Part shown: one piece after another, positions 1,412 through 17,176 of the stretch
Layout: each line of letters opens with the position of its first letter
Numbering within the stretch: the first letter of the stretch is position 1
Source of the DNA: Vulcanimicrobiota bacterium
GTDB taxonomy: Bacteria > Vulcanimicrobiota > Vulcanimicrobiia > Vulcanimicrobiales > Vulcanimicrobiaceae
Direction of reading: 5' to 3'
Length of the DNA: 64,000 nucleotides
NCBI GenBank assembly: GCA_963752765.1
Contig: CAVVZD010000003.1
Span: 220,040 to 284,039 of the forward strand
The notes under the pieces: model-generated
What the model was told of the DNA's origin: nothing
What the model saw: the letters and a program-made list of their open reading frames with translations, nothing else
Database searches by the model: none
Position numbers and translations under genes: made by a program

Positions 1412-3676
1412 TTAGAAGCTTTGACCGATTCCAAAGCTCGTGTGCGTTCCGTTCGCGCCCCTGGCAAAATCGATGCGGACGGTGTGCAGCCCCAGTTGCG
1501 GTACGTCAAAGCGGATGCCGAACCCCGCGTCTCCGTAGAGCGCCCAATCGCCCGGATACCCGACGATACGGTTCGTATACGGATCGAGCAGCGGATACGC
1601 GCCCCGAATCCGGTAGTCGAGCTCGTCGACAAAAACCGCTAGGGTGATGCGCCGATCGACGGCGAGCGGCTGCCGCAGCTCGACTTGCCCCAGAAACGCG
1701 TTGGTCGCGTAGAAAACTTGATTGTATCCGCGCATTTGCTGGTCGGAGAACGTGTAGAGCGAGCTCGGCGGGATGACGCCGGTCGAATCATACACAGCGC
1801 CGTGAACGCCGAGCGTTGCCGACTTGAGAATGGGAAAGAACTTGGCAATGTTGAGGGTCGTCGACGTAAACGAGAAGTTCGACCCGAAGGCCGGCACCGA
1901 AAACTGCGTCGCAAGACTGCCGTTGATGCCGACACGTGGATTGAAAGGATCGTCGAGCGTGGTCGTCGTTAGCCCTACCGTCGCCGTGTCGAGCTTGTAG
2001 GGAGCTCCGGTGTTGACGTTCGCAACGGAAGAGGCCGAGATGCCGAACGAGCCGCCGTAAGGACTGGTCGACGAGTTGATCGGTGACGGCGTTGGTCCCA
2101 CGAGAATATTGGGTTGATTCCCCTGAAAATAATACGGTGACGGGACGTCTGTGCTGTACCGTATCGTCTGCGCGCCTGCTTGCACCGTCAGAAGCGTGTA
2201 GTCGCTCAAGCGCCGCCCGATCGTCGCCGAACCTCCCGTTGCGCTCGATTCGCTTGTCGCTACGACGTTGCTGATGAGCGACGAGGTCGAGGTTGGATAG
2301 AGCGTTACCGGGATCGGGGCGGCGGTACCCGTCGGCGACGGGATGCTGACGCCGTTTGTCGATACGGCGTAAATCGGATAGTAATACGTCGAGCTATTCG
2401 TAAAGAGCGTGCCGCCCAGGCTGTAGCGGCTCGATTGCGGCGTACTGCCGAGATACGGAACCGATGCCGATATCTGGGCAACCCCCGTACGCGCGCCTTT
2501 TTCGAACTGTATCGAAGCCGAGTTGCCCGTGCCGTGCAGATCGTTGTCCGAAAACCCGAGCGTTCCATAGAGTCCTTGGCCGGTTAAGCCGCCCGAATAT
2601 CCGAAACCCACGGAAGCCTGCGCAGTGCGTTGTTCGGTAACGCGCCAAACAAGGGTAACGTCTTGCGGTTTCTTCGGATCGGGCCCGGGCTTGACGTCGG
2701 GATCGATCTTCGAGAAGAAACCGAGCGCATTGAGCCGCTCGTAATCGCGCTTTATCGCATCGGTGTTGAGCACCATGCCCGGCCGAACGCGCAGCTCTCG
2801 CCGGACGACGTAATCCTTCGTTCGCGAGTTGCCGGTAATCTCGACCACCGCCACGCGCGCGACGTAAATATTGTACTTGACGTCGGCCGTACCGGTTTTC
2901 AAATCGATGGACGAGGGATCGATCCCGCCTTCAAAGTTACCGAGCTCGAGGTGAAACTTGTCCTCGTACAGCTTCTGCAGCGCTTTGGAGTCCGAGTCGC
3001 GCACTTCGTCTGAATACACCGTGCCGGGCTTGAGCGAAAGCGCGGGCAGAATGAGGCTGGGCGGGAGCAACGGGTCGCCGCCGATGAGAATGTGGCGCAC
3101 GACGAGCCCCTCTTGAATGTCGAGCGTCAGCACGCCGGTCTGCGGATTGAGATCGAGGTTCTTGACGTGCGACGGCACCTGGCCGCCGTAACCAATGCGC
3201 TCGTAATAGTTATTGATTTTGAGAACGTCTTCTCGGAACGTGTTCGAGTTGAAGACTTGCCCGACCGAGAGGTCCATCAGCGCCGAGAGGGTATCGCTTG
3301 GAACCTTTGCGTTGCCGCTGAAGACAATCTTCGACAGCACCGGGTTTTCGATCACGCGGTACGTGATGGCGACGCCGCCCGGCCGCGCTCGAACCAGCGG
3401 CGGCGCGATGTCGGCAAAGTAACCCAGCGCGTTAATGCGCGCAAGATCTTCCTGCACGATACGCGGGTCGTAGGGTTCCCCCGGTCGAGCCTGGACGACC
3501 GCCAAGATCGTCTGCATGGGGACGTGAAGGTTTCCGGTCACGTCCACGGACACGATTGTCGGATTCGTGGCCGAGGATGCGGGGGCAACGATGAGGCTGA
3601 CGCACAGGATCAGCGCGAGCAGTGCTCCCGCCCACCTTGTCAGTGCAACGACGCACCGCCGAAGGTTAAAGGTCAT
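1412..3676 (-). CDS. bamA: outer membrane protein assembly factor BamA (Omp85 family)
   Basis: 754 aa with an N-terminal signal/anchor and POTRA-like repeats (IVSVDVTGNLHVP, KIVFSGNAKVPSDTL, VVEITGNSRTKDYVVRREL). The C-terminal beta-barrel region ends ...HTSFGIGQSF (terminal aromatic residue). Confidence 0.9.
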   Translation of the reverse strand: MTFNLRRCVVALTRWAGALLALILCVSLIVAPASSATNPTIVSVDVTGNLHVPMQTILAVVQARPGEPYDPRIVQEDLARINALGYFADIAPPLVRARPGGVAITYRVIENPVLSKIVFSGNAKVPSDTLSALMDLSVGQVFNSNTFREDVLKINNYYERIGYGGQVPSHVKNLDLNPQTGVLTLDIQEGLVVRHILIGGDPLLPPSLILPALSLKPGTVYSDEVRDSDSKALQKLYEDKFHLELGNFEGGIDPSSIDLKTGTADVKYNIYVARVAVVEITGNSRTKDYVVRRELRVRPGMVLNTDAIKRDYERLNALGFFSKIDPDVKPGPDPKKPQDVTLVWRVTEQRTAQASVGFGYSGGLTGQGLYGTLGFSDNDLHGTGNSASIQFEKGARTGVAQISASVPYLGSTPQSSRYSLGGTLFTNSSTYYYPIYAVSTNGVSIPSPTGTAAPIPVTLYPTSTSSLISNVVATSESSATGGSATIGRRLSDYTLLTVQAGAQTIRYSTDVPSPYYFQGNQPNILVGPTPSPINSSTSPYGGSFGISASSVANVNTGAPYKLDTATVGLTTTTLDDPFNPRVGINGSLATQFSVPAFGSNFSFTSTTLNIAKFFPILKSATLGVHGAVYDSTGVIPPSSLYTFSDQQMRGYNQVFYATNAFLGQVELRQPLAVDRRITLAVFVDELDYRIRGAYPLLDPYTNRIVGYPGDWALYGDAGFGIRFDVPQLGLHTVRIDFARGANGTHTSFGIGQSF

Positions 3677-9124: not shown

Positions 9125-11023
9125 TTAGAGATCTAGATTCTTCACGCTTTTCGCGTAGTCGAAGATGTACTGCTTACGGGGTTCCACTTTGTCGCCCATC
9201 AAATCGGTAAAGATCTGCTCGGCTTCGACCGCGTCTTCCACCGTGATCTGCTTGAGGCGCCGGTTACCGACTTCCATCGTCGTTTCCGCCAGTTGCTCCG
9301 CGTCCATCTCACCAAGACCCTTGTATTGCTGAATGGTAAACTCTTTGCCGTCTTCGCCGACGATGGATTTGAGCTCCGACTCGTTAAACGCCCACCATTG
9401 CTTCTTGCCCTTCTTTATGCCGTAGAGCGGTGGCTGCGCGATGAAGACGTGCCCATCTTCAACGAGCTGCTTCATTTGCCGGTAAAAGAACGTCAGCAGC
9501 AGCGTACGGATGTGCGAACCGTCGACGTCGGCGTCGGTCATGATGATGATCTTATGGTAGCGCAGCTTCTGCAAGTTGAACTCGTCGCCGAAGCCCGTCC
9601 CCAGCGCCGTAATCATCGTTCGAATTTCTTCGTTCGCCAGCACCTTGTCGAGGCGCGCCTTTTCGACGTTGATAATCTTACCGCGTAAGGGCAGAATCGC
9701 TTGGGTATTCGGATCGCGGCCACCCTTGGCGGTTCCACCGGCCGAGTCACCCTCGACCAAGAACAGCTCGCTTTCGGATGGATTGGTGTTTTTGCAGTCG
9801 ACAAGCTTGCCGGGAAGGCCCGATCCCTCGAGCGCATTCTTGCGACGTGAAAGATCGCGCGCTTTCTTGGCGGCTTCACGCGCGCGCTGCGCCTGCATGC
9901 ACTTGTCGATAATCGCCCGCGCATACTTGGGGTTTTCCTCGAAGAAGAACTCGAGTCGCTCGTTGACCAAATTGTGGACGATGCTGCGCACCCTGTTGTT
10001 GCCGAGCTTGGTCTTAGTCTGCCCCTCGAACTGCGGGTCTTGCAGTTTCACTGAAACGACCGCGGTGAGCCCTTCCAGGATGTCGTCGGTTGAGAGCGAC
10101 CCTTCCGAGTCTTTGAGCATCCCGCGCTTGCGAGCGTAGGCGTTTACCGCATTGGTCACGGCCGTGCGGAAGCCCAAGAGATGCATGCCGCCTTCGATCG
10201 TATTAATGTTGTTTGCATACGCGAAGATTGTTTCCGCGTATGTGTCCGTATACTGCATGGCCACTTCAACGTCAACGCCGTCTCGCTCGGAATGCGTGGA
10301 GAGAATGGGGTGCAGCGGATCCTTTTTCTCGTTAAGCCATTCAACGAACGAGACGATGCCGCCGTCGAATTTGTAGGTGCGCTCGCGCGGCGCGTCGCCC
10401 CGTTCGTCTCGCAGCGTTATCGAAAGGCCGCGGTTGAGGAAAGCGAGCTCGCGCAACCGCTTCTGCAGAATGTCCCAGTGAAACTCGGTGACTTCGAAGA
10501 TTTGCGTGTCAGGTTTGAACCATTGCAGCGTCCCTGTCTCCTCGGTCCTTCCGATCTTCTTGAGCTTCTCCGTGGTCTTACCGCGCTCGAACCTCATTTC
10601 CCAGAGGCTGCCGTCGCGCTTGACCCGCGTGATCATCCACTCCGAAAGCGCGTTAACTACGGAAATTCCGACGCCGTGTAAGCCTCCGGAAACCTTATAG
10701 CCGCCTTTGCCGAACTTGGCACCGGCGTGCAGCATCGTCATGACGACTTCGACCGCCGGCAGTTTTTCGCCGGCGACGGAGGTATCGACCGGGATGCCGC
10801 GACCATCGTCTTCGACCGCGCACGAACCATCGCGATGTAGCGTCACCACGACGGTGTGCGCGTACCCCGCAAGGGCTTCGTCCACGGCGTTGTCAACCGC
10901 TTCATAAACCAGCTGATGCAATCCCCGTTCGGCCGTGTTCCCGATGTACATCCCCGGCCGTTTGCGCACCGCGTCGAGTCCCTTGAGGACTTCGATATGT
11001 TCGCCCGTGTAGTTACTCGACAT
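9125..11023 (-). CDS. gyrB: DNA gyrase subunit B
   Basis: GHKL ATPase motifs (HQLVYEAVDNAVDEA, DDGRGIP, GLHGVG), Toprim EGDSAGG, and PLRGKIINVE. Confidence 0.97.
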   Translation of the reverse strand: MSSNYTGEHIEVLKGLDAVRKRPGMYIGNTAERGLHQLVYEAVDNAVDEALAGYAHTVVVTLHRDGSCAVEDDGRGIPVDTSVAGEKLPAVEVVMTMLHAGAKFGKGGYKVSGGLHGVGISVVNALSEWMITRVKRDGSLWEMRFERGKTTEKLKKIGRTEETGTLQWFKPDTQIFEVTEFHWDILQKRLRELAFLNRGLSITLRDERGDAPRERTYKFDGGIVSFVEWLNEKKDPLHPILSTHSERDGVDVEVAMQYTDTYAETIFAYANNINTIEGGMHLLGFRTAVTNAVNAYARKRGMLKDSEGSLSTDDILEGLTAVVSVKLQDPQFEGQTKTKLGNNRVRSIVHNLVNERLEFFFEENPKYARAIIDKCMQAQRAREAAKKARDLSRRKNALEGSGLPGKLVDCKNTNPSESELFLVEGDSAGGTAKGGRDPNTQAILPLRGKIINVEKARLDKVLANEEIRTMITALGTGFGDEFNLQKLRYHKIIIMTDADVDGSHIRTLLLTFFYRQMKQLVEDGHVFIAQPPLYGIKKGKKQWWAFNESELKSIVGEDGKEFTIQQYKGLGEMDAEQLAETTMEVGNRRLKQITVEDAVEAEQIFTDLMGDKVEPRKQYIFDYAKSVKNLDL

Positions 11024-11026
11024 TCG

Positions 11027-11869
11027 TTAGTTTCGTTCCGTTCCGTAAATTAAGTCGTGCAGCTCGTCCCCCAGTACGTTTCGAACCGTCGCCGGAGCGA
11101 TAGCTTCGGGCTGCAGCTTGCTGCGCAAAATGACGTACGAGCTCGCAATCGATCGCTCGCGCGCATCCGCCGACAGCCGGTTAGCCGCACCGGCCCGTGA
11201 CAGCATCTGCCACCATTCACTGAGCAAACGTGCGCGGATCGACTCGTACTCCTCTACCGATAAGCCATCGACAAGCGCGGCAGTGCCTGCGTACCCAAGC
11301 CATGGCGCTTCGTACAGCAATCGCGCTGCATCGTCGGCACGTTGCCGTTGCAGCGCGTTTTCACAGACCGTACAGAGCATGCCGGTGCCGGGCGCGACGA
11401 AGGCGCCACACCGGCTACAACCCTTCCACCCGGCGGCACGTTTGGCCCGCCCACTCTCGTCAACGTCGATGCGAAAACGCTCGACCGCCTCGTACACCGA
11501 GGCCGCCGGTGCACGTGCGCCGGCGCGTCCCGTCGGCGCTGCCGGCGGTCGTACGCCCAAGGGGGTTGCCATGCGGCGGCGCAGCTTCCCGACGCGAAAG
11601 CGCAGTTGGCGCAGCTCCAAGCCGGGTAAGCGCGCGCGCACGGCGCGAAGGATTTCCTCAGAGAGCATGCTGAGCTGGTGACTCCACGCGCTGGAGACGG
11701 TCGTTATCGAAAGGGTACCATCGCCAAGATGCGTCGGATGGCTATGCGCGGCGACATCGTCCCCGACGATCTCGCGCCAGCCCGCACCAATGAGAACGAT
11801 CGGAGCTCGTGCGGCCGCACCTGCGGGCGGTCGCCACTGGCCGAGTGCGTTGGCAATGCGCGTTAGCAC
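11027..11869 (-). CDS. DUF721 (DciA-like) protein with zinc-ribbon and C-terminal helical extension
   Basis: The N-terminal ~100 aa (GAGWREIVGDDVAAHSHPTHLGDGTLSITTVSSAWSHQLSMLSEEIL) matches my recollection of DUF721, in the conserved recF-DUF721-gyrB position. It is followed by CSRCGAFVAPGTGMLCTVCE (CxxC...CxxC). Overlaps the recF stop by 7 nt. Confidence 0.7.
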   Translation of the reverse strand: MLTRIANALGQWRPPAGAAARAPIVLIGAGWREIVGDDVAAHSHPTHLGDGTLSITTVSSAWSHQLSMLSEEILRAVRARLPGLELRQLRFRVGKLRRRMATPLGVRPPAAPTGRAGARAPAASVYEAVERFRIDVDESGRAKRAAGWKGCSRCGAFVAPGTGMLCTVCENALQRQRADDAARLLYEAPWLGYAGTAALVDGLSVEEYESIRARLLSEWWQMLSRAGAANRLSADARERSIASSYVILRSKLQPEAIAPATVRNVLGDELHDLIYGTERN

Positions 11870-12978
11870 GCCTGAACCTGTGCGCGTACGCGCGCATCGT
11901 CGACTGCGTAAAGAGCAATGCGTTGCTGTACTCCGTCGGGCGCGTGGGTCGCCGTAACAAATGCTTGCTCGTAATCTCCGACGCTGCGCAAGAACGCCGA
12001 TGAGCGTTGGACGTCCAACTCGGAGAGCACGTCGTCGAGTAAGAGTAGTGGTGCCTGCGCAGCGCGTTCATGCATGACGCTATATTCGGCAACCTTGAGC
12101 GCCAGCACCGCCGTCCGCTGCTGACCTTGCGAGCCGAACGTACCCAAGGGCATGCCGTCGAGAAGCAGGCGTACATCGTCGCGATGTGGCCCAGCTACGG
12201 CCGTCTTCCGCAGGCGCTCGGATTCGGCGACGTGGCGCAGGCGCGCCCAAAACGCTGTCTGTATCGACTCAGGCGCTGGCGTATCGTACGTGACATCTGG
12301 GTCGTACGCGACTTCCAACTGCTCTTGGCCGCCGGCAAAACCACGATGCGCGAGCGCCGCAGCGGCAGCCAGTACCTCTACAAACTGCGCTCGAGCCACA
12401 ACGAGCTGGGTACCCGCCTCCACGAGCGTTCGGTCGTACACCTCGAGCAGATCTTCGTCGATGTGATCGGCCGAGCGCAAGAGCGCGTTTTTTTGCGTGA
12501 GCGCGGTTCGATAGCGGGCGAGGTCGCGATAATAGCGTGGTTCGTCCTGCGCCAGCGCCGTATTGAGAAAAGCACGGCGTAGACTCGGTGGGCCGGTCGT
12601 CAATTGCAAATCGGATGGTACGAACGTCACAACCCGCAGCTTTCCAAGAAAAGAGGCATAGCGCACGTCGCGTCCGTTGACCGCATACGACTTGCGCGTC
12701 GTGCGTCCGGTCTTGCCAACACTGCAGGCCAGGCTTAGCTCTCCACCAGCAACGGCGGCTTCGCCGCGGACGACGGCGCGATCGAAGCCGGTTCGAACGA
12801 CATCGCCGTCTCGGCTGGTTCGAAAAGACTTCCCCGTTCCGAGCATTGCGATTGCCTCAAGCAAGTTGCTCTTGCCCTGAGCGTTAGCGCCGACGAAGAG
12901 GTTGAGCCCGGGCGCTAGGTCGAGATCCAGCGCCGCGTAGTTGCGGAAGTTCGATAGCGCGACGCGTGTGAGAAGCAA
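11863..12978 (-). CDS. recF: DNA replication and repair protein RecF
   Basis: Walker A GANAQGKSNLLEAI and Walker B-like LLLDDVLSELD. Canonical dnaN-recF order. Confidence 0.95.
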   Translation of the reverse strand: MLLTRVALSNFRNYAALDLDLAPGLNLFVGANAQGKSNLLEAIAMLGTGKSFRTSRDGDVVRTGFDRAVVRGEAAVAGGELSLACSVGKTGRTTRKSYAVNGRDVRYASFLGKLRVVTFVPSDLQLTTGPPSLRRAFLNTALAQDEPRYYRDLARYRTALTQKNALLRSADHIDEDLLEVYDRTLVEAGTQLVVARAQFVEVLAAAAALAHRGFAGGQEQLEVAYDPDVTYDTPAPESIQTAFWARLRHVAESERLRKTAVAGPHRDDVRLLLDGMPLGTFGSQGQQRTAVLALKVAEYSVMHERAAQAPLLLLDDVLSELDVQRSSAFLRSVGDYEQAFVTATHAPDGVQQRIALYAVDDARVRAQVQAC

Positions 12979-14332: not shown

Positions 14333-15691
14333 CTACGGGGTCTGGCACATTGCGATGAGCTGACGAATCTTGTTCCGATAAGCCTCGTCGCGCTGCATTT
14401 GATCCTTGATCTTATCGCGTGCGTACATCACCGTCGTGTGGTCCTTCTTGCCGAAATCCCGCGCGATCTGCGGCAAAGAGTATTGGGTGAGCTCGGTCGC
14501 AATATACATTGCGATTTGGCGCGGGGCAGCCAGTCGCTGATCGCGTCGTCCGTTGTCCATCTCTTTGACGGTCAAACCGTGGGCGCCGGCGACGGTGTCC
14601 TTAATCTTACCGATGGTAATACGCTGGAGCGGAACTTGGGCCACGGCGCTCTTGAGAACTTCCGCTGCGAGGTCGATCGTAATCGGCGCTTTCGTCAGCG
14701 ACGCGTACGCAACGACTCGTATGAGGGCACCTTCCAATTCGCGAATGTTTGAAGGAATGACTTTCGCTATGAACGAGGTGACCTCGTCGGGCACGGGGAT
14801 TTTCTCGCTCTCCGCTTTCTTACGCAAGATGGCTTCACGCGTTTCAAGATCGGGTGCTTGAATATCGGTAAGTAATCCCCATTCGAACCGCGAGCGCAAA
14901 CGCGATTCAAGCGTTTGAATTTCCTTCGGCGGCCGGTCTGATGAAATGATGAGCTGGCGTCCCGATTCGTGTAACGCATTGAACGTATGAAAGAATTCCT
15001 CTTGCGTAGTTTCTTTGCCGGCCAGAAACTGAATGTCGTCGATCAGCAGTACGTCCACTTGCCGGTACCGATTGCGGAACTCGGGCGTGCGGTTGTTTTG
15101 TAGTGCGATGATGAACTCATTCGTGAACTTTTCGCACGTAACGTAAACAACGTTGGCGCTAACGTTATCGAGCAACACACGGTGTCCGATCGCGTGCATC
15201 AAGTGCGTTTTGCCGAGCCCTACCCCGCCGTAGAGGAAGAGCGGATTATAGGCCCGCGCTGGGGCACTTGCCACGGCCTGCGCCGCGGCATGCGCAAAAC
15301 GATTGGAATTGCCGACCACAAACTCTTCGAACGTATAGCGAATGTTGAGATTGGCCGTGCGCAGCTCTTCGGGAGGGCGCGCGACCGCCGCGACACCGGG
15401 AAGGGGCGCCGGCAGCTCCCCCGGTTCCACGACCGAGAGACGCAACTCGAGCGACGCTCCAAAAGCGTCGCGTAAAACGTCGATAATTTGGCTTTGCAGC
15501 TTGCTCCCCACCCAGTGCTGCGCAAATTTGCTATGCACCGACAGATGCAACTCGTTGCCTTGATAGGAAACGAAGCGCATCGGTTTGATCCACATCTCGA
15601 AGACCGGTTTCGAAAAGCTTCGCTCGAGCGTTTCAAGGGCCGAGCGCCATAGCTCGTTCGAAGTGTCGGGTGAGCCAATCGCAAGCGCCAT
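14333..15691 (-). CDS. dnaA: chromosomal replication initiator DnaA
   Basis: AAA+ Walker A GGVGLGKTHLMHA, Walker B LLIDDIQFL, and C-terminal DNA-binding signature (HTTVMYARDKI). The start is placed at ATG 15691 (MALAIGSPD...). The 17 codons further upstream in the ORF track are an R-rich extension. Confidence 0.95.
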   Translation of the reverse strand: MALAIGSPDTSNELWRSALETLERSFSKPVFEMWIKPMRFVSYQGNELHLSVHSKFAQHWVGSKLQSQIIDVLRDAFGASLELRLSVVEPGELPAPLPGVAAVARPPEELRTANLNIRYTFEEFVVGNSNRFAHAAAQAVASAPARAYNPLFLYGGVGLGKTHLMHAIGHRVLLDNVSANVVYVTCEKFTNEFIIALQNNRTPEFRNRYRQVDVLLIDDIQFLAGKETTQEEFFHTFNALHESGRQLIISSDRPPKEIQTLESRLRSRFEWGLLTDIQAPDLETREAILRKKAESEKIPVPDEVTSFIAKVIPSNIRELEGALIRVVAYASLTKAPITIDLAAEVLKSAVAQVPLQRITIGKIKDTVAGAHGLTVKEMDNGRRDQRLAAPRQIAMYIATELTQYSLPQIARDFGKKDHTTVMYARDKIKDQMQRDEAYRNKIRQLIAMCQTP

Positions 15692-15742
15692 GCTCTGCGT
15701 CCCTCGTGTGAGATAGCGGGTCCGCCGCCCGCAAGGGCGCAA

Positions 15743-16029
15743 TCTGTTGGCTTAATCAAAGCTCGGTCCTGCGGAAGCTATGCACGACTTTATGCACTTA
15801 TCCACAGGAGCAAATCGGCGGTTTTATCGGGATTTTTCGAAATTATGAACCGAAAAAAACCGAGGCTTGACAAGCGCAATTCCGACGCCCCCACAAGCCT
15901 TTCTGAGCAATTACTGAGTCGTTTCCGGCGAGCTTCTCCACAGGCTTGTCCACACATGTGGAGAGAAGCCGCGAAGGCCTGCTTACGCCGGCGTATAAGT
16001 CTTCGTTGCTGCGCCTGTTTGAAGGTGGG
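15743..16029. other. oriC: candidate oriC (DnaA-box cluster plus AT-rich putative unwinding tract) upstream of dnaA
   Basis: Boxes: TTATCCACA 15798-15806 (perfect), TTCTCCACA 15934-15942 (1 mismatch), TTGTCCACA 15946-15954 (1 mismatch), inverted TGTGGAGAG 15957-15965 (rc CTCTCCACA). AT-rich GTTTTATCGGGATTTTTCGAAATTATGAACCGAAAAAAACCG at 15821-15862. Divergent gene orientation on both sides. Confidence 0.55.
15798..15806 (+). promoter_or_regulatory. perfect consensus DnaA box TTATCCACA
   Basis: Exact 9-mer read directly from the sequence, about 107 nt upstream of the dnaA start codon. Confidence 0.7.
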
Positions 16030-16854
16030 ATGAGTTGCTGTATTGCGGCGATCGCCTCTGGCGGTAGCCATATTATCCTGGTAGCCGACAAAGCGGTCGG
16101 TTCCTCGGTAGGCCAAGGCGAGCTTAATGGAGTTCTGAAGCTCGACCAGGTTCATGATGACTGGTGGTCCCTTTTTTCGGGGGATCCCTCCCTTGCAGGC
16201 GACCTTTTTGCGCGCCTCAAGCGCGCGTTACCGAGCGGGCCGCTGTCGGCCGAAAACGTCGATTCCTATCTGTCGGCGACGATGTTCGAAAAATGGGTCT
16301 GCGATACCGAGCGGCGCTTCTTGCTCCCGGAAGGCTACGATACCGAAAGCTTTCAATCTGAAGCACCGCGCAGAATGCGCCCCGGCATTTACGAGCGCGT
16401 GCGAACCTTACGCCTGGCATACGAGCTGGATGCATCGATTCTGCTTGCCGGATTTGATGGTGAAGGGCAGGCGCACATTCTCAGCTGCACAGGATTTGAC
16501 GACGAACTGCATACCAAACACGTTCCGGCCAATCACGATCTCGCCGGTTATTTTGGAATCGGTGCCGGCGCATCGGGCGCGCTTTGGATGATGAACTACA
16601 AGAACGTCGGCCCCTATATGTCGTACGTCGACGTCGCATACTACGCGGTCGAGGGAAAGTATTACGGGGAGCGTGGGCATCGTGACGGTGAGTTGACCGA
16701 TCTCACCGTTCTGCGCCACAAGAAGAAACCGCAATCCGTCAACGCGCATTGGCTCGGCAAAACATTCATTCCGGTGTGCGAGAAGTTACGGCCGCGAAAG
16801 CTCAAAAACAAGAACCGCAAGCGGCTCGACAAGTTCAAGTTCTCGAAGAATTAA
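16030..16854 (+). CDS. hypothetical protein, proteasome-beta/HslV-fold-like (Ntn-hydrolase-like) with MSCC N-terminus and basic C-terminal tail
   Basis: ATG 16030 is preceded by GAAGGTGGG. The longer ORF-track start (15946) lies inside the DnaA boxes. By-eye motif matches to the proteasome beta fold: [27 protein letters not shown]...[42 protein letters not shown]. Not HMM-verified. Confidence 0.5.
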
Positions 16855-16897
16855 GGCCTTGCCAACCCGGCAGCGGGCCTGGTATACTCACCCGGCT

Positions 16898-17176
16898 ATG
16901 TTCCTGTTCGATCTTCAATTGTTTGCGTCCAAGAAGGGCGCCGGCTCGACGCGAAACGGGCGCGACTCGAATGCCCAGCGCCTCGGCGTCAAACACTTCG
17001 GCGGCGAGCGCGTGGTTGCGGGGCACATCATCGTGCGCCAGCGAGGAACGCGGTTCCATCCCGGCCGTAACGTGGGGATCGGGAAGGATCACACTCTTTT
17101 TGCCCTCGTCGACGGAACGGTCGAGTTCGTTCTCCGCCGTAACCGCAAGCACGTGGACGTCAGGCCCGCTGCCTAA
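16898..17176 (+). CDS. rpmA: 50S ribosomal protein L27 with 9-residue N-terminal propeptide
   Basis: MFLFDLQLF|[23 protein letters not shown]... The core matches L27. The N-terminus matches the cleavable Firmicute-type extension (compare MLxLxLQFFASKKG). Confidence 0.95.

Follow-up and report, generated by a model that had tools for sequence, protein, structure and literature searches.

A stand-alone proteasome-beta-like gene between dnaA and rpmA of a Vulcanimicrobiota bacterium belongs to a family with transposon-linked members

Proteasome homologs other than HslV, Anbu, BPH and 20S proteasome subunits are almost entirely uncharacterised. Fuchs, Alva and Lupas described 22 further families of such homologs for which no characterisation was available, the largest of which, PMI-4, is also found in phages, and reported no informative genomic context for them; they also considered that an insertion at the site following core helix H2 could hinder the formation of closed heptameric rings (Fuchs et al., 2021; PMC8665760). 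Members of PHI, of PMI-3 and of PMI-4 carry a long insertion after helices H1/H2, stand alone with no AAA+ partner, keep a conserved catalytic triad and occur in prokaryotes and phages. Here we describe a gene, referred to as gene X, whose product resembles these proteins in each of these respects, its own insertion comprising helices at residues 105–130. Gene X lies on the forward strand at positions 16030–16854 of the window, that is, of the whole 64-kb stretch of DNA analysed (64,000 nucleotides of contig CAVVZD010000003.1, assembly GCA_963752765.1, from a Vulcanimicrobiota bacterium), between dnaA and rpmA. We consider, with a probability of roughly three in four, that protein X belongs to the proteasome-beta (T1) superfamily as a stand-alone protein whose catalytic set is intact, that it is encoded by an accessory, mobilome-derived gene, and that it stands outside the HslUV, Anbu and 20S systems.

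The coding sequence of gene X (16030..16854, +, stop codon included) specifies 274 aa, and its membership of the proteasome-beta-type N-terminal nucleophile (Ntn) hydrolase superfamily is supported by the family to which it belongs as well as by its predicted structure. A search of 5.8 billion proteins returned only 12 relatives of protein X (50–70 % identity, 274–278 aa), one of them labelled Candidatus Eremiobacteraeota and two carrying a precomputed PF00227 match. When 11 close relatives were scanned singly, eight matched PF00227, the top score being 26 bits against a gathering cut-off of 22.4 bits. When 1.84 billion representatives were searched exhaustively with a profile, the family grew to 1,527 proteins at E<=1e-3, 436 of them at E<=1e-10, these being counts of representatives at 50 % identity. 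The family is almost wholly metagenomic, and its members are typically 270–320 aa long with an N-terminus of the form M-T-[VCT]-C-[IV]-A-A. A further homologue search with profile A4 added just P0291 and the already known P0153, and no named or NCBI-accessioned member; likewise, tblastn searches with protein X against GenBank phages and PLSDB plasmids, with P0133 against GenBank phages, and with P0078 and P0024 against PLSDB plasmids gave no match. A profile built from 73 family sequences matched the proteasome beta subunit of M. jannaschii (3h4p) in the PDB with an E value of 3e-12, and in this alignment the Met-Thr of the family falls on the Met-Thr of the archaeal protein, Asp20 on Asp17 and Lys37 on Lys33. 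The NCBIfam model for archaeal proteasome beta subunits, TIGR03634, was matched by 47 of the 73 sequences.

The AlphaFold2 model of protein X based on an alignment of 121 family sequences had a predicted local distance difference test score (pLDDT) of 91.6 and a predicted template-modelling score (pTM) of 0.89, and superseded an earlier run with 11 sequences in which one of five models was good (pLDDT 70.5). The predicted fold is the alpha-beta-beta-alpha sandwich of proteasome subunits, and in a Foldseek search against the PDB the top 50 matches of the model were all 20S proteasome subunits (E ~5e-10), with target-normalised TM-scores mostly of about 0.55–0.70; a fold search of BFVD gave weak matches only, to other phage HslV/proteasome-like proteins. 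The model contains helices H1 (residues 53–66) and H2 (74–101) and a tight hairpin between strands S3 and S4 (38–42/45–51), and ends in a C-terminal helix followed by a basic tail. Two extra helices (105–115 and 118–130) are predicted after core helix H2, forming a helical insertion at about residues 102–131 (16333..16422, +) that is also seen in the family profile, as ~35 extra positions between the two blocks aligned to proteasome beta. The proteasome-beta/HslV fold had been proposed in an earlier sequence-only reading of gene X on the strength of four motif matches made by eye; the PF00227, profile and Foldseek results bear out the fold, and the hidden Markov model alignment together with the structure prediction bears out all four matches.

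Conservation of the predicted active site was assessed over the same 121 aligned family members. The codons for Ser2-Cys3-Cys4 occupy 16033..16041 (+), and Ser2, which aligns with Thr1 of the proteasome, is the predicted nucleophile: position 2 is Thr in 111 and Ser in 10 of the sequences, so that no member lacks one or the other. Cys4 is present in 121/121. The sequence-only reading had offered either Ser or Cys as the nucleophile; the alignment favours Ser2 (Thr in most relatives), and the Cys of the original alternative is better described, as Cys4, as an invariant signature of the family. The Asp and Lys partners that it had placed beside the nucleophile are indeed retained, Asp20 (16087..16089, +; aligned to the D of the proteasome A-T-D-K motif and equivalent to Asp17) and Lys37 (16138..16140, +; aligned to Lys33) each being conserved in 120/121. 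Gly51 (16180..16182, +), within F-S-G, aligns to the A-G of the proteasome and is the equivalent of the oxyanion-hole residue Gly47; this position is Gly in 102 and Ala in 15 of the 121. The segment G178-A179-G180 (16561..16569, +) corresponds to the G-S-G motif containing Ser129, with both glycines present in 121/121 and the intervening position occupied by Ser in 87, Thr in 15 and Ala in six. Lys210 and Glu214 are conserved in 118/121 and 114/121, respectively. Gene X is, moreover, a real gene under purifying selection, since the ratio of non-synonymous to synonymous substitution rates (dN/dS) between it and its syntenic ortholog on the JGI contig L001 is 0.14.

Methionine aminopeptidase accepts Ser and Thr as permissive second residues. 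Our working model is that this enzyme removes Met1 of protein X and that the exposed Ser2 would then serve as an N-terminal nucleophile, activated by Lys37, Asp20 and its own alpha-amine, with Gly51 supplying the oxyanion hole. Protein X would then act on a specific substrate, cleaving a peptide bond or possibly, as a transpeptidase, transferring it. The two-helix insertion, the C-terminal helix and the Lys/Arg-rich tail are likely to be the elements that bind a partner or substrate; the insertion and the tail would confer target specificity.

Among described systems the best profile match is to the archaeal 20S beta subunit (PF00227; TIGR03634), with which protein X shares the Ntn fold, a Thr/Ser nucleophile and the equivalents of Asp17, Lys33 and Gly47. 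The G-S-G motif is also common to archaeal 20S beta and the family, protein X itself having G-A-G. Unlike 20S beta, however, protein X lacks both an alpha-subunit partner and a propeptide, contains the ~35-residue insertion after H2 as well as a basic tail, has at mature position 3 a Cys that is invariant in the family, and belongs to a family with a mobilome-linked setting. As regards the bacterial 20S system (prcAB with pup/mpa), no such neighbours were found, there is a single proteasome-like open reading frame (ORF) in the 64 kb, and protein X starts with M-S. HslV is, like protein X, a bacterial beta homolog, in which Thr1 is exposed after Met removal and which in many species has no propeptide, but it is a protein of ~175 aa, free of insertions and dependent on HslU, whereas protein X has 274 aa with an insertion and a tail; the profile match to HslV was weak (4hnz, E 3.6e-5), and no hslU is adjacent to gene X. 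Anbu resembles protein X in being a stand-alone bacterial homolog, of ~250 aa, with a C-terminal helix extension, yet the genes of the Anbu operon (those for ATP-grasp, alpha-E and transglutaminase proteins) are found neither next to gene X nor among the annotated or scanned neighbours of its relatives, and neither the 60 best PDB sequence matches nor the 50 best fold matches included an Anbu chain. The absence of adjacent hslU, Anbu-type and pup/mpa/prcA genes, already remarked on from the sequence, thus holds for the ORFs of the window and for the Pfam-annotated syntenic contig L001.

The proteasome fold and catalytic residues might nevertheless belong to the protease core of an ATP-dependent machine (HslUV-, Anbu- or 20S-like) whose partners are encoded elsewhere in the genome, 64 kb of which was inspected. 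We regard this as very unlikely. No AAA+ unfoldase, ATP-grasp, alpha-E or transglutaminase gene and no alpha subunit lies beside gene X or its homologs in the Pfam-annotated contexts, and none of the ten neighbours scanned in loci from the metagenome scan encodes such a partner. The distribution of the family is patchy and linked to mobile elements, the helical insertion occupies the pore-loop site, and HslV models match just two to three of 73 family members, weakly. Gene X is an orphan by virtue of its membership of a mobilome-associated family and not for want of a partner.

Connectase, an archaeal protein ligase, offers a different comparison: like protein X it probably does not belong to a ring machine, and it has accessory helices close to the active site. 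The connectase reports (PMC7980362, PMC8665760) show that a proteasome homolog which is monomeric and has such helices can be a ligase, and this is the precedent for supposing that the family of protein X, with its own accessory helices and no ring partners, consists of sequence-specific transpeptidases or ligases and not of hydrolases. Connectase, however, lacks H1/H2 and has a two-helix insertion between S3 and S4 (PMC8665760), whereas protein X retains H1/H2, inserts its helices after H2 and is without the S3/S4 insertion that defines connectase. Connectase was also absent from the 60 best PDB sequence matches and the 50 best fold matches, and we think a connectase-like ligase family quite unlikely. 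Nothing supports membership of protein X in HslUV, Anbu, BPH, 20S/Pup or connectase. Most likely it belongs to one of the families of Fuchs et al. (2021), the match being one of description only: cluster look-ups with 20 family members returned metagenomic entries only and none of HDY66466.1, OGZ26396.1 or WP_012956871.1. None of the papers citing Fuchs et al. (2021) characterises these families, as judged by title and abstract, and keyword searches of the literature collection used turned up no such paper either. A point of difference from those families, for which no informative context was reported, is the recurrent arrangement, seen here, of the homolog as a passenger of IS1/IS1595 elements.

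That gene X is an accessory gene in this lineage is shown by comparison with close relatives, in which the gap between dnaA with its DnaA-box-like sites and rpmA is a variable hot spot that is filled in at least three different ways. Contig L001 has the identical order of dnaA, on the opposite strand, followed by X-rpmA-obg-nadD; the two versions of protein X, from the window and from L001, share 70 % identity, against 81–94 % for the flanking genes. L001 has an extra ~350 bp upstream of X, missing from the window, with a 90-aa ORF (3038–3310, -) resembling GerE/sigma70-r4 helix-turn-helix proteins; this ORF was considered as kin of the IS1-like transposase and rejected, as the two are unrelated. 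Two close relatives, retrieved through an L27 protein of 88 % identity, have the same synteny without X. The variable cassette carrying gene X spans 15966..16876, its flanks aligning to those of relatives: by blastn, positions 33–596 of contig L017 correspond to window positions 15408–15965 and 868–1166 to 16877–17175, and the 271 bp between them (597–867) replace the cassette with a 79-aa hydrophobic ORF. In Candidatus Tumulicola (phylum Vulcanimicrobiota, alias Eremiobacterota), the same gap (L018, 1495–4458; also L019) is occupied by an IS1-like transposon whose terminal inverted repeats, GGTAGTGACTCAGTTTAAAA, are 20 nt long. The passenger of this transposon, convergent with the transposase gene, encodes a 129-aa Cas2/VapD-like protein whose PF09827 score of 23.8 bits is exactly at the cut-off. 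The architecture of this element matches that of the elements carrying proteasome homologs. Two contigs of Eremiobacterota type place homologs of X elsewhere, one beside a DUF3800 gene near infC-rpmI-rplT (L002) and one in an unrelated context (L005).

Genomic context of the wider family was surveyed in 39 non-redundant contexts (90 % identity) drawn from viral, metagenome and assembly look-ups. In 11 of these, a gene or gene fragment for an IS1-like or IS1595-family DDE transposase lies within 400 bp of the homolog, and when only contexts with 1 kb or more of sequence downstream are counted the proportion is 10/31. The transposase gene is near-always convergent with the homolog and abuts or overlaps its 3' end; the P0146 contig, which is outside the 39 and was judged from gene annotation only, has the same arrangement. 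Two transposase clades with no BLAST-level relation to each other are involved, both scoring above Pfam cut-offs, one to DDE_Tnp_IS1 (26.5–33.5 against 24.1 bits) and the other to Zn_ribbon_IS1595 and DDE_Tnp_IS1595. In several cases homolog and transposase gene are enclosed by inverted repeats, which are perfect over 20 nt in L020 (6998–7017 and 9081–9100) and are found at 9654–9679 and 12400–12425 in L007 and at 1790–1807 and 4645–4662 in L011, while in L012–14 the GGTAGTGRSTCAGTTT motif occurs at both ends of the element. These elements are passenger-carrying insertion sequences (IS). Carriage of passengers is a known trait of IS1595-family elements (Siguier et al., 2009, cited in PMC3129680), and the relatives of X are enclosed with a transposase gene in the same way as the cargo of the 'transporter' IS elements of the IS1595/IS1 superfamily. 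A keyword search of the literature collection used found no paper mentioning both 'IS1595' and 'proteasome'. Gene X itself would have been acquired as such mobilome cargo.

Close association with a transposase gene could also mean that the family is a transposition accessory factor, processing or degrading the IS1/IS1595 transposase or a host regulator, and that the window copy is a relic that has lost its transposase. This would suit the position of the homolog, convergent with and a few bp from, or overlapping, transposase genes of two unrelated IS1-superfamily clades and inside the inverted repeats. In a sister element whose inverted repeats and transposase are the same, however, a VapD/Cas2-like gene takes the place of the homolog, which indicates that the cargo is interchangeable; moreover, about two-thirds of the contexts, the window included, are without a transposase, and the window copy is still under purifying selection. 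We therefore rate a role in transposition as improbable, and prefer to see the homologs as cargo.

Further features were seen with these elements. A small, very basic protein (87–106 aa, with the pattern AVALGRKGG...A.KAA.ARW), which has no Pfam match, is found repeatedly with IS1-like elements (L007, 12094–12357, -; L011, 4321–4641, -; L012, 13187–13459, -; L018, 4689–4955, +; L044, ~1162–1392, -), its gene in L018 lying outside the right inverted repeat. In contig L016 the proteasome homolog is present twice, as divergent copies in tandem (9815–10810 and 10934–11938) behind a single left inverted repeat (9752–9767), with a transposase fragment after them. Away from these elements, one homolog is located on a P22-like phage contig and another in a helicase/excisionase-type element, and the neighbours of others include genes for ResIII restriction, HNH, phage Dam-like methylase, CAP12/Pycsar TIR effector and DUF3800 proteins. 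A DUF3800 gene stands directly upstream of the homolog in two independent contexts (L002, 1527–2237; L047, 4098–4922), and DUF3800 proteins could be a second recurrent partner of the family.

A number of observations weigh against the view that protein X is an active, mobilome-derived member of the superfamily. Protein X alone gave no match in Pfam, NCBIfam, PHROGs, PADLOC or the PDB sequences, and because its own sequence falls below detection its homology is shown through relatives and profiles. The best structural matches of its model are mostly non-catalytic alpha subunits. At the position equivalent to Ser129 it has Ala179, where 102/121 family members have Ser or Thr, and Asp219, unique among the 121, replaces Val in an otherwise conserved G-V-G motif; the three nearest relatives are likewise degenerate at the Ser129-equivalent/G-V-G positions. 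Since Ala179 and Asp219 depart from the family consensus, the activity of protein X could be reduced or altered. As for its origin, the window copy has no transposase gene and no ORF for the small basic protein near it, and neither a GGTAGTGRSTCAGTTT-type repeat (up to 3 mismatches allowed) in the window nor inverted repeats flanking X were found, so that it differs from the transporter IS elements on both counts. The case for a mobilome origin of gene X consequently comes from its transposon-linked relatives and from its presence or absence among close relatives, and from nothing seen directly at the window copy.

It is because of Ala179 and Asp219 that a further explanation is retained, namely that protein X, like the alpha subunits, is catalytically dead and is kept as a pseudo-enzyme or scaffold for binding, for example via its basic tail. 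The variation of its closest relatives at the same two sites and the prominence of alpha subunits among the fold matches would both fit. Set against this, Ser/Thr2, Asp20, Lys37 and Gly51 are all kept, invariant or nearly so in the 121 sequences, the dN/dS value points to purifying selection, and the nucleophile of protein X is not masked by an N-terminal extension. A dead enzyme thus appears unlikely, and we continue to favour an active Ntn hydrolase.

The gene immediately downstream, rpmA (16898..17176, +), encodes ribosomal protein L27 with a Firmicute-type N-terminal extension of nine residues, and is considered here simply as a neighbour of gene X. The extension (16898–16924) reads MFLFDLQLF ahead of ASKKG, and MFLFDLQLF|ASKKG is the Prp-type cleavage motif. 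In Firmicutes, the gene for the cysteine protease Prp lies immediately upstream of rpmA. Here, rpmA is preceded by neither rplU nor prp, and the 64-kb window yielded no Prp or L21 motif. With rpmA a mere 43 nt downstream, and a relative of X in L002 near infC-rpmI-rplT, one might suppose that protein X replaces Prp as the protease that trims the L27 extension. We consider this extremely unlikely. At least 120 L27 proteins are 79–91 % identical to that of the window over 98–100 % coverage, extension included, among 7,911 L27 matches (few of those listed bear a source name, in most cases one from this phylum), against ~12 orthologs of X in the same database; the rpmA locus is the same in close relatives that lack X, and homologs of X occur in L005 and ~35 other contexts away from rpmA. 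In addition, rpmA has its own promoter-like site within the 43-nt spacer (16859..16888, +), TTGCCA-18-TATACT with TG, identified as a consensus match only. Protein X also differs in kind from Prp (PF04327, a small Cys-His protease of the DUF464 family), having a proteasome fold and relatives whose sole Pfam match is PF00227.

The start of gene X was placed at the ATG at 16030, giving the N-terminus MSCC, with the stop codon at 16852–16854. A longer frame from a TTG at 15946 is not supported, since a purine-rich GAAGGTGGG lies directly 5' of the ATG and 82/127 full-length relatives start exactly at Met-Thr/Ser. About one-third of family ORFs have been called with an N-terminal extension (e.g. 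P0078, P0087, P0100 and P0142), many of these having a conserved R-P-[AS]-D-W-G-x-G directly before M/V-T-V-C, and GTG or TTG is found at the codon preceding Thr in 20/121 members; the extensions may be genuine propeptides or miscalls of upstream starts. At the other end, the tail (16789..16851, +) runs from a conserved P-R motif, with Pro255 in 102/121.

Upstream of X and on the opposite strand lie dnaA (14333–15742), dnaN and recF; downstream, rpmA, with its ATG at 16898, is followed by obg and nadD. The dnaA ORF (14333–15742, -) has 469 aa from a TTG, 17 residues more than the 452-aa DnaA called in relatives, and the true start is probably an internal ATG (MALAIGSPD...). A scan of the window for TTATCCACA with at most one mismatch found seven DnaA-box-like sites, of which four cluster in the dnaA-X intergenic region at 15586..15954; this region is plausibly, from its sequence, the dnaA promoter or oriC-like, and it is on account of this cluster that the label 'next to oriC or dnaA promoter' is reasonable. 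The sequence-only reading was accordingly sound in its plausible placement of X on the side of oriC, in the distance of 43 nt from its end to the ATG of rpmA, and in the strongly basic character of the tail, 11 of the final 21 residues being Lys or Arg, a feature kept within the clade. Its statement that X uses more A/T-ending codons than its neighbours did not hold: the G+C content at third codon positions of X (0.662) is at the level of dnaA (0.677), recF (0.669) and nadD (0.676), and rpmA and obg alone are higher. Codon usage or G+C content as evidence of a recent transfer of X was rejected for the same reason.

Gene X is therefore an uncharacterised gene from a known superfamily, the proteasome-like Ntn hydrolases, and not a categorically new system. 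It provides a clean example of the poorly characterised part of that superfamily, with a single gene, an intact triad, no propeptide and a high-confidence model, and the invariant Cys two residues past the nucleophile is a family-specific feature of the active-site strand. The passenger arrangement with IS1/IS1595 elements is a new lead: the family recurs as a passenger of transposons from two clades of the IS1 superfamily, and has restriction, TIR, DUF3800 and phage genes among its neighbours. It is interesting to speculate on what such cargo might do. One tentative possibility, which we would not put higher than that, is that the family represents mobile-element-borne Ntn proteases or transpeptidases that take part in conflicts between elements, hosts and phages, cleaving a host, phage or transposase target to which they would be directed by the basic tail and the insertion. 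If this were true, a mobilome- or defence-type role would be described for a proteasome homolog for the first time, as would regular carriage of one by IS1/IS1595 transposons.

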